Source: Escherichia coli (GTDB lineage: Bacteria > Pseudomonadota > Gammaproteobacteria > Enterobacterales > Enterobacteriaceae). From it: 64,000 nucleotides of DNA. How positions within the stretch are numbered: position 1 is the stretch's first letter; every line of letters starts with the position of its first letter. The DNA lies in the NCBI RefSeq assembly GCF_044324875.1, contig NZ_CP172185.1. One strand, written 5' to 3'. Below the pieces are notes generated by a model that had not been told where the DNA came from, did no database searches, and saw only the letters and a list, made by a program, of their open reading frames with translations. This document shows positions 36,990 to 42,007 of this stretch, in pieces. The translations under genes were made by a program, and so were the position numbers.

Positions 36990-37342
36990 CACCTCCGTTT
37001 TCGCATTATATTTTCTAATGTCACGAATTTTTGATTTAGTGTTTTTTGACATTTTTTCAGTTCTTAATATTGAATTAATCAAATTAACTTTCTCATTACA
37101 TCATCTTTGTATAGAAACTGGTAAGTTTTTTGGTTTTTTATTCTGTTGCGCTTTTTGCGTTTTTTAACCATAAGCTAATGTGATGATCAATTTTACCTTA
37201 TGGTTAACAGTCTGTTTCGGTGGTAAGTTCAGGCAAAAGAGAACGATTGCGTTGGGGACCGGGAGTGGCTCCGATGCTGGGTTTCGTGGTGATAATTTCG
37301 CCATGGAAAAGTTGTCAGCCCCGCTTATTCAATGAGGACAAG
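36990..37342 (+). promoter_or_regulatory. gcvTHP promoter/control region
   Basis: About 350 bp of AT-rich sequence upstream of gcvT; the known gcv control region carries GcvA, Lrp, CRP and PurR sites, but individual sites were not mapped here. Confidence 0.45.
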
Positions 37343-38437
37343 ATGGCACAACAGACTCCTTTGTACGAACAACACACGCTTTGCGGCGCTCGCATGGTGG
37401 ATTTCCACGGCTGGATGATGCCGCTGCATTACGGTTCGCAAATAGACGAACATCATGCGGTACGTACCGATGCCGGAATGTTTGATGTGTCACATATGAC
37501 CATCGTCGATCTTCGCGGCAGCCGCACCCGGGAGTTTCTGCGTTATCTGCTGGCGAACGATGTGGCGAAACTCACCAAAAGCGGCAAAGCCCTTTACTCG
37601 GGGATGTTGAATGCCTCTGGCGGTGTGATAGATGACCTCATCGTCTACTACTTTACTGAAGATTTCTTCCGCCTCGTTGTTAACTCCGCCACCCGCGAAA
37701 AAGACCTCTCCTGGATTACCCAACACGCTGAACCTTTCGGCATCGAAATTACCGTTCGTGATGACCTTTCCATGATCGCCGTACAAGGGCCGAATGCGCA
37801 GGCAAAAGCTGCCACACTGTTTAATGACGCCCAGCGTCAGGCAGTGGAAGGGATGAAACCGTTCTTTGGCGTGCAGGCGGGCGATCTGTTTATTGCCACC
37901 ACTGGTTATACCGGTGAAGCGGGCTACGAAATTGCGCTGCCCAATGAAAAAGCGGCCGATTTCTGGCGCGAGCTGGTGGAAGCGGGCGTTAAGCCATGCG
38001 GTCTGGGCGCGCGTGACACGCTGCGTCTGGAAGCGGGCATGAATTTGTATAGTCAGGAGATGGACGAAACCATCTCTCCGTTAGCCGCCAACATGGGCTG
38101 GACCATCGCATGGGAACCGGCTGATCGTGACTTTATCGGTCGTGAAGCTCTGGAAGCGCAGCGTGAACATGGCACAGAAAAACTGGTTGGTCTGGTGATG
38201 ACCGAAAAAGGCGTGCTGCGTAATGAACTGCCGGTACGTTTTACTGATGCGCAGGGCAACCAGCATGAAGGCATTATCACCAGCGGGACTTTCTCCCCGA
38301 CGCTGGGTTACAGCATTGCGCTGGCGCGCGTGCCGGAAGGTATTGGTGAAACAGCGATTGTGCAAATTCGCAACCGTGAAATGCCGGTTAAAGTGACGAA
38401 ACCTGTTTTTGTGCGTAACGGTAAAGCCGTCGCGTGA
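37343..38437 (+). CDS. gcvT: Glycine cleavage system T protein (aminomethyltransferase)
   Basis: 364 aa from [33 protein letters not shown]. Confidence 0.97.
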
Positions 38438-38460: not shown

Positions 38461-38850
38461 ATGAGCAACGTACCAGCAGAACTGAAATACAGCAAAGAAC
38501 ACGAATGGCTGCGTAAAGAAGCCGACGGCACTTACACCGTTGGTATAACCGAACATGCCCAGGAGCTGTTAGGCGATATGGTGTTTGTTGACCTGCCGGA
38601 AGTGGGCGCAACGGTTAGCGCGGGCGATGACTGCGCGGTTGCCGAATCAGTAAAAGCGGCGTCAGACATTTATGCGCCAGTAAGCGGTGAAATCGTGGCG
38701 GTAAACGACGCACTGAGCGATTCCCCGGAACTGGTGAACAGCGAACCGTATGCAGGCGGCTGGATCTTTAAAATCAAAGCCAGCGATGAAAGCGAACTGG
38801 AATCACTGCTGGATGCGACCTCATACGAAGCATTGTTAGAAGACGAGTAA
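38461..38850 (+). CDS. gcvH: Glycine cleavage system H protein
   Basis: 129 aa from [20 protein letters not shown]; lipoyl-lysine motif region. Confidence 0.97.
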
Positions 38851-38968
38851 CGGCTTTATTCCTCTTCTGCGGGAGAGGATCAGGGTGAGGAACTTTTACG
38901 CCTCACCTTCACTCTCTTCGCAAGGAGAGAGGTTCACAATTCACTGCACGTTTCAGGAACCATCGCTC

Positions 38969-41842
38969 ATGACACAGACGTTAAGCCAGCTTGAAAACAG
39001 CGGCGCTTTTATTGAACGCCATATCGGACCGGACGCCGCGCAACAGCAAGAAATGCTGAATGCCGTTGGCGCACAATCGTTAAACGCGCTGATCGGCCAG
39101 ATTGTGCCGAAAGATATTCAGCTTGCGACCCCGCCGCAGGTTGGCGCACCGGCGACCGAATACGCCGCGCTGGCGGAACTCAAGGCTATTGCCAGTCGCA
39201 ATAAACGCTTCACGTCTTACATCGGCATGGGTTACACCGCCGTGCAGCTACCGCCGGTTATTCTGCGTAACATGCTGGAAAATCCGGGCTGGTATACCGC
39301 GTATACTCCGTATCAACCTGAAGTCTCCCAGGGCCGCCTTGAAGCACTGCTCAACTTCCAGCAGGTAACGCTGGATTTGACCGGTCTGGATATGGCATCG
39401 GCTTCTCTTCTTGACGAAGCCACCGCTGCCGCCGAAGCAATGGCGATGGCTAAACGCGTCAGCAAACTGAAAAATGCCAACCGCTTCTTCGTTGCTTCTG
39501 ACGTCCATCCGCAAACGTTGGATGTGGTACGTACTCGTGCCGAAACCTTTGGTTTTGAAGTGATTGTCGATGACGCGCAAAAAGTGCTCGACCATCAGGA
39601 CGTCTTCGGCGTGCTGTTACAGCAGGTTGGCACAACCGGTGAAATCCACGACTACACTGCGCTCATCAGCGAACTGAAATCACGCAAAATTGTGGTCAGC
39701 GTCGCCGCCGATATTATGGCGCTGGTGCTGTTAACTGCGCCGGGTAAACAGGGCGCGGATATTGTTTTTGGTTCGGCGCAACGCTTTGGCGTACCGATGG
39801 GTTACGGTGGCCCACACGCGGCATTCTTTGCGGCGAAAGATGAATACAAACGCTCAATGCCGGGCCGTATTATCGGTGTATCGAAAGATGCAGCTGGCAA
39901 TACCGCTCTGCGCATGGCGATGCAGACTCGCGAGCAACATATTCGCCGTGAGAAAGCGAACTCCAACATTTGTACTTCCCAGGTACTGCTGGCAAACATC
40001 GCCAGCCTGTATGCCGTTTATCACGGCCCGGTGGGCCTGAAACGTATCGCTAACCGCATCCACCGTCTGACCGATATCCTGGCGGCGGGCCTGCAACAAA
40101 AAGGTCTGAAACTGCGCCATGCGCACTATTTCGACACCTTGTGTGTGGAAGTGGCCGACAAAGCGGGCGTACTGACGCGTGCCGAAGCGGCTGAAATCAA
40201 CCTGCGTAGCGATATCCTGAACGCGGTTGGGATCACCCTTGATGAAACCACCACGCGTGAAAACGTGATGCAGCTTTTCAGCGTGCTGCTGGGCGATAAC
40301 CACGGGCTGGAGATCGACACGCTGGACAAAGACGTGGCTCACGACAGCCGCTCTATTCAGCCTGCGATGCTGCGCGACGACGAAATCCTCACCCATCCGG
40401 TGTTTAATCGCTACCACAGCGAAACCGAAATGATGCGCTATATGCACTCGCTGGAGCGTAAAGATCTGGCGCTGAATCAGGCGATGATCCCGCTGGGTTC
40501 CTGCACCATGAAACTAAACGCCGCCGCCGAGATGATCCCAATCACCTGGCCGGAATTTGCCGAACTGCACCCGTTCTGCCCGCCGGAGCAGGCCGAAGGT
40601 TATCAGCAGATGATCGCGCAGCTGGCTGACTGGCTGGTGAAACTGACCGGTTACGACGCCGTTTGTATGCAGCCGAACTCTGGCGCACAGGGCGAATACG
40701 CGGGCCTGCTGGCGATTCGTCATTATCATGAAAGCCGCAACGAAGGGCATCGCGATATCTGCCTGATCCCGGCATCTGCCCACGGCACTAACCCCGCTTC
40801 CGCGCATATGGCGGGGATGCAGGTGGTGGTTGTGGCGTGTGATAAAAACGGCAATATCGATTTGACTGATCTGCGCGCGAAAGCGGAGCAGGCGGGCGAT
40901 AACCTCTCCTGCATCATGGTGACCTATCCTTCCACTCACGGCGTGTATGAAGAAACGATCCGTGAGGTTTGTGAAGTCGTGCATCAGTTCGGTGGTCAGG
41001 TTTACCTTGATGGCGCGAACATGAACGCTCAGGTTGGCATCACCTCGCCGGGCTTTATTGGTGCGGACGTCTCGCACCTCAACCTGCATAAAACTTTCTG
41101 CATTCCGCACGGCGGTGGTGGTCCGGGTATGGGACCGATCGGCGTGAAAGCGCATCTGGCACCGTTTGTGCCAGGTCATAGCGTGGTACAAATAGAAGGC
41201 ATGTTAACCCGTCAGGGCGCGGTTTCTGCGGCACCGTTCGGTAGCGCATCCATTCTGCCAATCAGCTGGATGTACATCCGCATGATGGGCGCAGAAGGGC
41301 TGAAAAAAGCAAGCCAGGTGGCAATCCTCAACGCCAACTATATTGCCAGCCGCCTGCAGGATGCCTTCCCGGTGCTGTATACCGGTCGCGACGGTCGCGT
41401 GGCGCACGAATGTATTCTCGATATTCGCCCGCTGAAAGAAGAAACCGGCATCAGCGAACTGGATATTGCCAAGCGTCTGATCGACTACGGTTTCCACGCG
41501 CCGACCATGTCGTTCCCGGTGGCGGGTACGCTGATGGTTGAACCGACTGAATCTGAAAGCAAAGTGGAACTGGATCGCTTTATCGACGCGATGCTGGCTA
41601 TCCGCGCAGAAATCGACCAGGTTAAAGCCGGTGTCTGGCCGCTGGAAGATAACCCGCTGGTGAACGCGCCGCACATTCAGAGCGAACTGGTCGCCGAGTG
41701 GGCGCATCCGTACAGCCGTGAAGTTGCGGTATTCCCGGCAGGCGTGGCAGACAAATACTGGCCGACAGTGAAACGTCTGGATGATGTTTACGGCGACCGT
41801 AACCTGTTCTGCTCCTGCGTACCGATTAGCGAATACCAGTAA
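38969..41842 (+). CDS. gcvP: Glycine dehydrogenase (decarboxylating), P protein
   Basis: 957 aa from [22 protein letters not shown]. Confidence 0.97.
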
Positions 41843-41864: not shown

Positions 41865-41888
41865 AAAGGCGCTTCGGCGCCTTTTTAG
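41865..41888 (+). terminator. gcvP intrinsic terminator
   Basis: aaaggcgcTTCGgcgccttttt hairpin with a T tract. Confidence 0.75.
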
Positions 41889-41959
41889 CTTGTTAATAAA
41901 GTGCGCTTTGTGTGTTTCGACTGAGGCGTAATATAAAATATTGCGAGCTCAATATATTA

Positions 41960-41998
41960 AAAGAGTGCCAGGCCTGATGAGCGTAGCGCATCAGGCAC
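41960..41998. repeat. REP element
   Basis: gccaggcctgatgagcgtagcgcatcaggc palindromic unit. Confidence 0.7.
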
Positions 41999-42007
41999 AT
42001 CGGCTAA

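Follow-up and report, generated by a model that had tools for sequence, protein, structure and literature searches.

Hairpins between gcvH and gcvP of Escherichia coli: a putative decayed pair of BoxC repeats at a mapped RNA 3′ end

Within the gcvTHP operon of Escherichia coli, the short spacer between gcvH and gcvP holds three back-to-back stem-loops, and we were interested in what these structures are and whether they bear on the output of gcvP relative to gcvT and gcvH. An earlier note on this DNA, made from the sequence alone, had proposed that they act as RNase E-protective or attenuating structures that tune gcvP relative to gcvT/gcvH, and had pointed to structure prediction, RNA 3′-end mapping and conservation with compensatory pairing across Enterobacteriaceae as the evidence that matters. 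We analysed the spacer within the window, by which we mean the whole 64-kb stretch of E. coli DNA, and compared it with published data from K-12 and with the spacers of other species. All window features described here lie on the plus strand.

The gene order is gcvT (37220–38437), gcvH (38461–38850, 129 aa, with its TAA stop at 38848–38850) and gcvP (38969–41842, 957 aa); the list of open reading frames and the translations define gcvH and gcvP, and matching E. coli records annotate them under these names. Between the gcvH stop and the gcvP ATG at 38969 lies an intercistronic spacer of 118 nt (38851–38968), so that the range given in the earlier note coincides exactly with this spacer inside the gcvTHP operon. 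An in-frame GTG at 38885, which would lengthen gcvP by 28 codons, was regarded as a mechanical artefact of open-reading-frame calling. Reading of the sequence downstream of gcvP identifies an intrinsic terminator, AAAGGCGC-TTCG-GCGCCTTT followed by TT, at 41865–41886; the primary K-12 Term-seq 3′ end in the published table, 3046123(-), corresponds to the end of the T-tract of this terminator.

Three stable hairpins in the spacer

Folding of the sense RNA of the spacer gives three separate hairpins, on which the minimum-free-energy and centroid structures agree. HP1 pairs 38860–38867 with 38872–38879 (8 bp including one G·U, loop UGCG) and begins 10 nt past the gcvH stop. HP2 pairs 38883–38890 with 38901–38908 (8 bp) around a 10-nt loop (38891–38900), and HP3 pairs 38912–38919 with 38924–38931 (8 bp including one G·U, loop GCAA). 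The strings from which the earlier note had read its stem-loops are all present, cctcttctgcgggagagg at 38861–38878, ggtgaggaacttttacgcctcacc at 38884–38907 and ctctcttcgcaaggagagagg at 38912–38932. Compared with dinucleotide shuffles, HP1 (−12.6 kcal/mol, z = −3.2), HP2 (−11.9 kcal/mol, z = −4.0) and HP3 (−12.2 kcal/mol, z = −3.5) are each unusually stable, and the entire spacer (−42.1 kcal/mol, z = −3.7) is equalled by 0 of 200 shuffles. This analysis confirmed that the three hairpins are real and exceed chance, with about −12 kcal/mol and z values from −3.2 to −4.0 for the stem-loops that had been proposed. Folding of the antisense strand is weaker (−36.9 kcal/mol, z = −2.5) because the G·U pair of each stem becomes a C·A mismatch on the opposite strand.

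As read in the sequence, no U-tract or T-run follows any of the three hairpins, and a promoter and terminator scan of the spacer returned no promoter-like or terminator-like site, though the same scan also missed the real gcvP terminator. An intrinsic (Rho-independent) terminator was therefore rejected as a description of the spacer: the hairpins are present but the T-run is absent. An Rfam scan from gcvT to gcvP at a permissive E-value returned whalefall-1 as its sole match, at chance level (19.8 bits against a gathering threshold of 37, E = 0.13).

Within the species the spacer is nearly constant. Of 5426 complete E. coli genomes, 5425 contain a single match to a 119-nt query, and at this length the spacer is therefore not a dispersed repeat. 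The sampled variation falls in the HP2 loop, in the HP3 loop or in one change from G-C to G·U, and the unpaired parts outside the loops are invariant. The HP2 loop is the only hypervariable stretch, varying at 4–5 of its 10 positions. K-12 differs from the window at five positions of the spacer, four of them in loops and one a G-C to G·U change.

Relationship to the BoxC/PIT/TMECO repeats

The first clue that the spacer might be a repeat was the likeness of HP1 and HP3, which lie 52 nt apart. The second came from E. coli strain VTB96775v, whose spacer measures 170 nt and carries an extra 52-nt unit of HP2 and HP3; this extra unit represents repeat-type instability. BoxC is a repeat later named PIT and then TMECO (Petrillo 2008, PMC2267715; Holder 2015, PMC4666352), with the TMECO consensus CCCTCNCCC N3-6 GGGNGAGGG N3 GGGNGAGGG and a ‘tandem inverted’ arrangement at five K-12 loci (Holder 2015, PMC4666352); Bergler 1992 and Hoyne & Maher 2000 are named as earlier literature on BoxC. 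Our reference copies were 22 BoxC sequences (Petrillo 2008, PMC2267715) and 23 K-12 TMECO sequences (Holder 2015, PMC4666352).

Judged from sequence and orthology, we interpret the spacer as a decayed head-to-head pair of BoxC repeats and not as a dedicated gcv structure. It can be read as [CCTCTTC-tgcg-GGAGAGG-atca-GGGTGAGG]–aacttttacg–[CCTCACC-ttca-CTCTCTTC-gcaa-GGAGAGAGG], with a gap of 10 nt between the elements. The left BoxC/TMECO-like element (38860–38891), in the G-rich orientation, reads TCCTCTTC-tgcg-GGAGAGGA-tca-GGGTGAGGA and is placed by a partial profile match and by its colinearity with canonical copies in Enterobacter and Pseudocitrobacter. The right element (38901–38932), in the C-rich orientation, reads CCTCACC-ttca-CTCTCTTC-gcaa-GGAGAGAGG and is placed by alignment to Enterobacter copies. 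The left element folds on itself as HP1 and the right as HP3, and HP2 forms between the elements, where the GGGTGAGG arm of the left pairs with the CCTCACC arm of the right.

The orthologous spacers carry this assignment. A profile hidden Markov model (HMM) built from the 23 K-12 TMECO copies and run with nhmmer had its top match in the 64-kb window at 38869–38890, a partial match (model positions 13–34) with E = 0.012, and the right half scored at an E-value of about 1. On the orthologous spacers of Enterobacter cloacae, E. asburiae, Pseudocitrobacter, strain RIT691 and Pluralibacter the same model gave E-values of 1e-9 to 1e-6, and the canonical copies there begin at spacer nt 9–11, an offset like that in E. 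coli. The layout in E. cloacae, E. asburiae, Pseudocitrobacter and others is CCCTCTCCC-n-GGGAGAGGG-n-GGGGTGAGGG … CCCTCACCC-TAA-CCCTCTCCC-n-GGGAGAGGG, and the right element of the window aligns with the canonical CCCTCACCC-TAA-CCCTCTCCC-…-GGGAGAGGG of the first two. The window spacer aligns colinearly with that of E. cloacae, at 69% identity over 81 nt, and with that of L005, an intermediate Escherichia lineage, at 78%.

The window copy departs from the strict TMECO motif, by 5 substitutions in the plus-strand half (38860–38891) and by 7 in the minus-strand half (6 in K-12); the halves of the same spacer in E. cloacae need 0 and 1. Each half has thus lost 5–7 of about 25 defined consensus positions, mostly through changes from G/C to A/T. 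An exact BoxC-hairpin pattern had no match in the window because the gcv copy is degenerate, and the gcv spacer is absent from both published K-12 lists (23 TMECO, 22 BoxC). Since the motif fails and orthology holds, the pair belongs to the family by descent and not by consensus. It shares with the family the three-block layout of a pyrimidine arm, a purine arm and a second purine arm, and is likewise strictly intergenic, lying wholly inside the gcvH–gcvP spacer as an inverted pair of the kind found at the five K-12 loci. The loss of G/C triads predicts a weak triplex or none, and the triplex potential of the gcv copy has probably been lost.

A canonical K-12 BoxC pair downstream of gcvP (3045989–3046087) has the identical succession of hairpin, arm, spacer, arm and hairpin. 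K-12 carries this pair together with ygfF just past gcvP, and the segment is missing from the strain of the window.

Pairing across species was analysed in nine BoxC-type spacers, whose consensus fold contains the same three hairpins. Paired bases fill 91% of cells (97% in HP1 and 93% in HP2), against 52–73% when the partners are slid, and five of the seven aligned pairs of HP3 have changed on both sides across species. In all, seven pairs have changed on both sides, a count reached by 17 of 500 shuffles. Compensatory changes, which the earlier note had named as a check, are thus seen, but the covariation support is modest because purine and pyrimidine tracts pair promiscuously and palindromy is inherent to the repeat.

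Spacer content across gamma-proteobacteria

The comparison set comprised the gcvH–gcvP spacers of 78 other species among the matches listed, with Salmonella and other Escherichia species outside the sample. Most of these 78 spacers contain a strong hairpin straight after gcvH. Within the core Enterobacteriaceae it belongs to a REP, ERIC or BoxC element, and beyond them to an intrinsic terminator. BoxC was identified by HMM in about 9 of the 78 listed species, plus remnants recognized by eye. REP/BIME elements occur in about 19 of the 78, including Citrobacter, Leclercia, Lelliottia, Kosakonia and some Enterobacter; these calls come mainly from regular expressions and reading of the sequences, as a three-sequence profile was weak (5 matches). 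The REP consensus (a GCCGGATG…CATCCGGC palindrome) was matched by profile and regular expression in the spacers of other species and not in that of the window or K-12.

A profile built from the ERIC sequences of Petrillo detected full-length ERIC in the spacers of C. youngae, Kluyvera and Klebsiella spallanzanii (E-values of 1e-28 to 1e-25), and short forms occur in several other listed species. ERIC (IRU) resembles the gcv BoxC pair as an enterobacterial palindromic repeat that folds in mRNA and fills this same spacer elsewhere, but its sequence is unrelated, it measures about 127 bp and it is absent from the spacer of the window. Canonical intrinsic terminators are found in Pantoea, Photorhabdus, Dickeya, Providencia, Yersinia, Shewanella, Idiomarina and others, and, where the case is clear, begin 4–19 nt downstream of the gcvH stop; the terminator scan confirmed those of Dickeya and Photorhabdus and missed that of Yersinia nurmii. 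The hairpin is absent from Erwinia psidii and E. mallotivora (23-nt spacers) and from Rosenbergiella (8 nt).

BoxC, REP and ERIC replace one another among close relatives, even within Enterobacter and within Citrobacter, and among the spacers of the listed species conservation in Enterobacteriaceae is confined to the last ~36 nt before the gcvP ATG. The spacer is therefore not conserved across Enterobacteriaceae: its content varies, holding BoxC, REP/BIME, ERIC or a true terminator by lineage. That four unrelated hairpin elements occupy one operon junction is a new observation.

RNA 3′ ends and candidate roles of the hairpins

We took advantage of published Term-seq data for MG1655 (Adams et al. 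2021, eLife, supplementary file 1), in which a 3′ end at 3049097(-) was recorded in all three conditions. It lies at spacer nt 63, 5 nt past HP2 and inside the 5′ arm of HP3, in the context TCTTCTGCGGGAGAGGATCAGGGTGAGGAAAATTTATGCCTCACCCTCACT|CTCTTCGTAA, and the alignment of K-12 to the window transfers it from NC_000913.3 3049097 (minus strand) to 38913. Peak scores for two of the conditions are 412219 and 171112. The first of these belongs to LB at OD600 0.4, where the gcvP terminator scores 36065, a ratio of about 11; such scores are not calibrated abundances. The fragment comprising HP1 and HP2 scores in the same order of magnitude as 6S RNA in the same table. The published label of the end, ‘orphan’, reflects no more than its distance of over 50 nt from the gcvH stop, and Adams 2021 lists no Rho termination region near it. 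The end was mapped in K-12, whose spacer differs from that of the window's strain at five positions.

At least five other K-12 BoxC copies have 3′ ends 4–11 nt past the hairpin in the same published data (847200-, 3781065+, 3959467-, 4231270- and 632098+), and a rough estimate places such ends several-fold above chance. The BoxC family has been discussed as a DNA motif devoid of regulatory function, whereas the distinguishing feature of the gcv copy, the mapped 3′ end, is at the RNA level. The spacer thus presents the structural mark of a REP-type stabiliser, a stable stem-loop in the message between two genes, followed within a few nucleotides by an RNA 3′ end, as far as the published K-12 data extend.

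We favour a reading in which the decayed BoxC pair is an intra-operon module that forms and stabilises 3′ ends and lowers gcvP mRNA relative to gcvT/gcvH, and we consider it somewhat better than an even prospect. Upon transcription of gcvTHP, each element would fold its own hairpin (HP1 and HP3) and the facing arms would fold HP2. The dominant RNA 3′ end of the region in vivo, in K-12, is that 5 nt past HP2, and many transcripts would therefore contain gcvT and gcvH and lack gcvP. Such an end could arise by downstream cleavage or inefficient termination, after which a 3′→5′ exonuclease would stall at HP2, as at REP stabilisers; by analogy, exonuclease stalling is the most likely route and efficient intrinsic termination a less likely one. 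The outcome may have been selected for the balance of GcvT/H to GcvP. Against this reading, the 3′ end lies after HP2 and not after HP3, which is equally stable; an exonuclease arriving from downstream would meet HP3 first, so that an extra cleavage or termination event must be assumed. The turnover of spacers between and within genera is, moreover, equally expected of selfish or neutral repeats. The reported lack of promoter or terminator activity and of a general regulatory link in BoxC/PIT elements (Holder 2015, PMC4666352) and the hairpin-free spacers of Erwinia psidii, E. mallotivora and Rosenbergiella also count against it.

REP stabilisers and internal read-through terminators are both established devices for setting the relative levels of messages within an operon. 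Newbury, Stern and Higgins reportedly described REP/BIME elements in 1987–88 as intercistronic mRNA stabilisers, at malE-malF and hisJ-hisQ. Like the gcv BoxC pair, these are palindromic extragenic repeats within an operon that fold stably in the mRNA, with an RNA 3′ end a few nucleotides beyond the stem, and the excess of upstream over downstream message at REP/BIME stabilisers may have its counterpart at gcv. They differ in belonging to another sequence family, the E. coli spacer being without the REP consensus. The internal terminator of the gcvTHP operon in Dickeya dadantii is strong, follows gcvH, terminates about 71–76% of transcription as measured and agrees, according to the authors, with long-read studies in E. 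coli (Forquet 2022, PMC9239193). It shares with the E. coli site the operon, the position and probably the outcome, an excess of gcvT-gcvH over gcvTHP, but consists of a canonical hairpin and U-tract where E. coli has three hairpins without a U-tract. By these analogies, the gcv hairpins probably function either as an intercistronic stabiliser of the REP type or as an internal terminator that permits read-through.

The proposal that the hairpins tune gcvP against gcvT/gcvH hence fits both the published K-12 3′ end past HP2, which also supplies the 3′-end mapping that the earlier note had in mind, and the Dickeya terminator; it overlooked the repeat identity, and the hairpins are not a conserved gcv-specific RNA. 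Its RNase E-protective variant is disfavoured, because a 3′ end a few nucleotides past a stem indicates a 3′→5′ exonuclease barrier or termination. For E. coli, we found no ratios of gcvT/H to gcvP mRNA or protein in the literature, and a search on gcvH with Term-seq or RIL-seq, or on the gcvH/gcvP intergenic region, returned nothing; the main text and the part of the supplements of Yan 2018 that was available contain no gcv entry.

We also entertained the possibility that the pair is a neutral relic, a decaying selfish or parasitic palindromic repeat whose hairpins are a by-product of its palindromy and whose 3′ end arises incidentally during mRNA decay, with no effect on gcvP expression that selection has favoured. 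The free turnover of BoxC, REP and ERIC among close relatives is what such a relic would produce, as are the three nearly spacer-free species, the 5–7 consensus positions lost per element in E. coli, the modest covariation (sliding partners by −1 still leaves 73% of cells paired) and the lack of a BoxC/PIT regulatory role in earlier work, as relayed by Holder 2015 (PMC4666352). We nevertheless think it doubtful: all three stems have survived decay, the changes being compatible with G·U pairing and favouring the sense RNA, they are invariant in E. coli while the HP2 loop varies at 4–5 of 10 positions, some hairpin, real terminators included, directly follows gcvH in most of the 78 listed lineages, and the equivalent site in Dickeya measurably lowers gcvP expression (Forquet 2022, PMC9239193). 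True attenuation, with RNA polymerase partly terminating just past HP2 by a non-canonical intrinsic or NusA/NusG-assisted route and the remainder reading into gcvP, would account for a sharp end 5 nt past a G+C-rich 8-bp stem followed by the pyrimidine-rich UCACUCUCUU, and places an end upstream of HP3 more easily than trimming from downstream does. Relatives with bona fide intrinsic terminators here, among them Dickeya at 71–76% (Forquet 2022, PMC9239193), and the want of a listed Rho region at the site in the Adams 2021 data also agree with it. Against it stand the missing U-tract and the scan without a terminator-like site in the spacer, as well as canonical BoxC copies that likewise end 4–5 nt past the hairpin in the published table, a typical signature of exonuclease stalling. 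RNA ends at intrinsic terminators usually lie 7–9 nt past the stem, but here the distance is 5 nt. BoxC/PIT elements, moreover, lack promoter and terminator activity in reporter tests and have no general link to gene regulation according to Holder 2015 (PMC4666352), in its account of work from the Maher laboratory. We regard attenuation as rather unlikely.

An action at the level of DNA has been proposed for TMECO, in which a non-B motif (intrastrand triplex or cruciform) would destabilise the genome locally; members of the family do form stable triplexes in vitro, and the loci that carry them are prone to rearrangement (Holder 2015, PMC4666352). The 52-nt duplication in one strain and the presence past gcvP of the canonical BoxC pair and ygfF in K-12 but not in the strain of the window would suit such an action. 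The gcv copy, however, fails the triplex consensus (5 and 7 substitutions, with G/C triads lost), its stems contain T·G mismatches as DNA, and the spacer is stable: 5425 of 5426 genomes have it once and at the same length, and a single expansion was seen. A DNA-triplex role for this decayed copy is unlikely, and we judge a DNA-level element as a whole improbable. Least credible is docking of CsrA, another RNA-binding protein or an sRNA to GGA hairpins that would control gcvP translation, to which we give very little credence. Four GGA motifs do lie within 80 nt (AGGAU, AGGAA, AGGAG and CAGGAA, the last at the gcvP Shine-Dalgarno), and the adjoining leader is highly conserved, but the motifs are mostly in stems and not in loops, follow automatically from the BoxC consensus GGGAGAGGG/GGGTGAGGG and are lacking in species with REP or ERIC spacers that keep the leader; our literature search found no link to such a regulator.

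If the favoured reading of a 3′-end-forming, stabilising BoxC pair is correct, it would explain why a single promoter yields less message for the P-protein than for T and H, provide a concrete RNA-level role for the poorly understood BoxC repeats and define one operon junction where four unrelated hairpin elements substitute in evolution. It would refine operon and repeat biology and is not a new principle. The BoxC family, the functional class and the K-12 3′ end are already public; new are the identification, from sequence, of the spacer as a putative decayed BoxC pair and the connection drawn between BoxC hairpins and RNA 3′ ends in the published table. A broader reading, which we put forward tentatively and hold to be less probable than not, is that selection at the junction favours whatever strong hairpin will end or protect the gcvTH message, with an intrinsic terminator, REP/BIME, ERIC or BoxC recruited convergently in different gamma-proteobacterial lineages; BoxC elements genome-wide would then be REP-like hairpins that form and stabilise RNA 3′ ends, and HP1-HP2 might in addition be a stable 3′UTR-derived RNA. 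Until now, BoxC/PIT/TMECO repeats have been regarded as motifs of DNA triplex formation or instability, with no part in regulation. Were the broader reading true, the gcv copy, being past triplex potential with its RNA stems intact, would be the clearest RNA case for BoxC.

The remainder of the spacer is the gcvP leader (38933–38968), …TTCACTGCACGTTTCAGGAACCATCGCTC, with the Shine-Dalgarno AGGA at 38955–38958, and is near-invariant in Enterobacteriaceae whichever repeat lies upstream. Pairing of the sRNA GcvB with this leader was considered and rejected, as 320 of 500 shuffles were at least as good for the full-length RNA and 261 of 1000 random windows were at least as good for the R1 seed alone. 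The leader contains a weak, invariant hairpin of its own, which pairs 38940–38946 with 38954–38959.

Number and folding of the spacer hairpins

Three RNA hairpins (HP1, 38860-38879; HP2, 38883-38908; HP3, 38912-38931), a decayed inverted pair of BoxC repeats, occupy the gcvH–gcvP spacer (38851-38968). Polymorphism of this spacer within E. coli falls nearly entirely in the 10-nt loop of HP2 (38891-38900), where 4-5 positions vary and a 1-nt indel occurs, and at a single base of the HP3 loop (38921); the rest, unpaired parts included, was without variation among the sampled strains. One of 5425 E. coli genomes, that of VTB96775v, carries a spacer of 170 nt (1426-1595). Its additional 52-nt unit consists of an HP2-like and an HP3-like hairpin; the repeat unit thus varies in tandem copy number.

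How far three hairpins are favoured over a single long one varies among lineages. In Escherichia strain SCPM-O-B-8794 (2391-2503; GGGAGAGTTAGGGTGAGG…CCTCACCCTAACTCTCTC), perfect complementarity covers the 3′ arm of HP1, HP2 as a whole and the HP3 5′ arm. The minimum free energy fold of its spacer is therefore a single long 18-bp hairpin, whereas the spacer of the window's E. coli, a close relative, forms three.

Pairing near the gcvH stop and gcvP start codons

The final codons of gcvH (AGAAGACGAGTAA, 38838-38850) and TTATTCCTCTTCT (38856-38868), a stretch that overlaps the HP1 5′ arm, share 85% complementarity; their pairing would be an alternative competing with HP1. HP1 itself starts only 10 nt past the gcvH stop codon. 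REP hairpins (a different palindromic repeat family) near a stop codon reportedly interfere with translation termination, as described by Liang, Rudd and Deutscher in 2015, and the 10-nt distance lies within the range reported for this interference.

At the other end of the spacer, the gcvP leader of ~36 nt (38933-38968) is almost invariant across Enterobacteriaceae, regardless of the type of repeat upstream. A weak predicted hairpin can form here on the plus strand (38940-38946 paired with 38954-38959), and would occlude the gcvP Shine-Dalgarno AGGA (38955-38958, plus strand). Pairing of GcvB with the leader was no better than random. A GTG inside HP2 (38885) shares the gcvP reading frame, which no stop codon interrupts in between (38885-38968), and mechanically yields an ORF of 985 aa versus 957 aa for gcvP; this ORF is probably meaningless, because the conserved Shine-Dalgarno stands before the annotated ATG.

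BoxC copies beyond the spacer

The BoxC family has been reported elsewhere to be without terminator activity. Among the entries taken from supplementary file 1 of Adams 2021, however, Term-seq RNA 3′ ends lie 4-11 nt past the CCCTCTCCC/GGGAGAGGG hairpin at at least five other K-12 BoxC copies (847200(-), 3781065(+), 3959467(-), 4231270(-) and 632098(+)). On these entries, BoxC elements in general may resemble REP in how they behave as RNA.

K-12 has a canonical inverted BoxC/TMECO pair (3045989-3046087; nos. 10 and 11 of Holder 2015, PMC4666352) directly past the gcvP terminator, and ygfF comes next. In K-12, gcvP thus has BoxC pairs on either side, decayed upstream and canonical downstream. 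This ~1-kb segment of BoxC pair and ygfF is missing from the window's strain (41889-42007 versus NC_000913.3 3045102-3046121), where 119 unique nt replace it and bglA comes directly next. Within these 119 nt lies a REP-like palindrome, gccaggcctgatgagcgtagcgcatcaggc.
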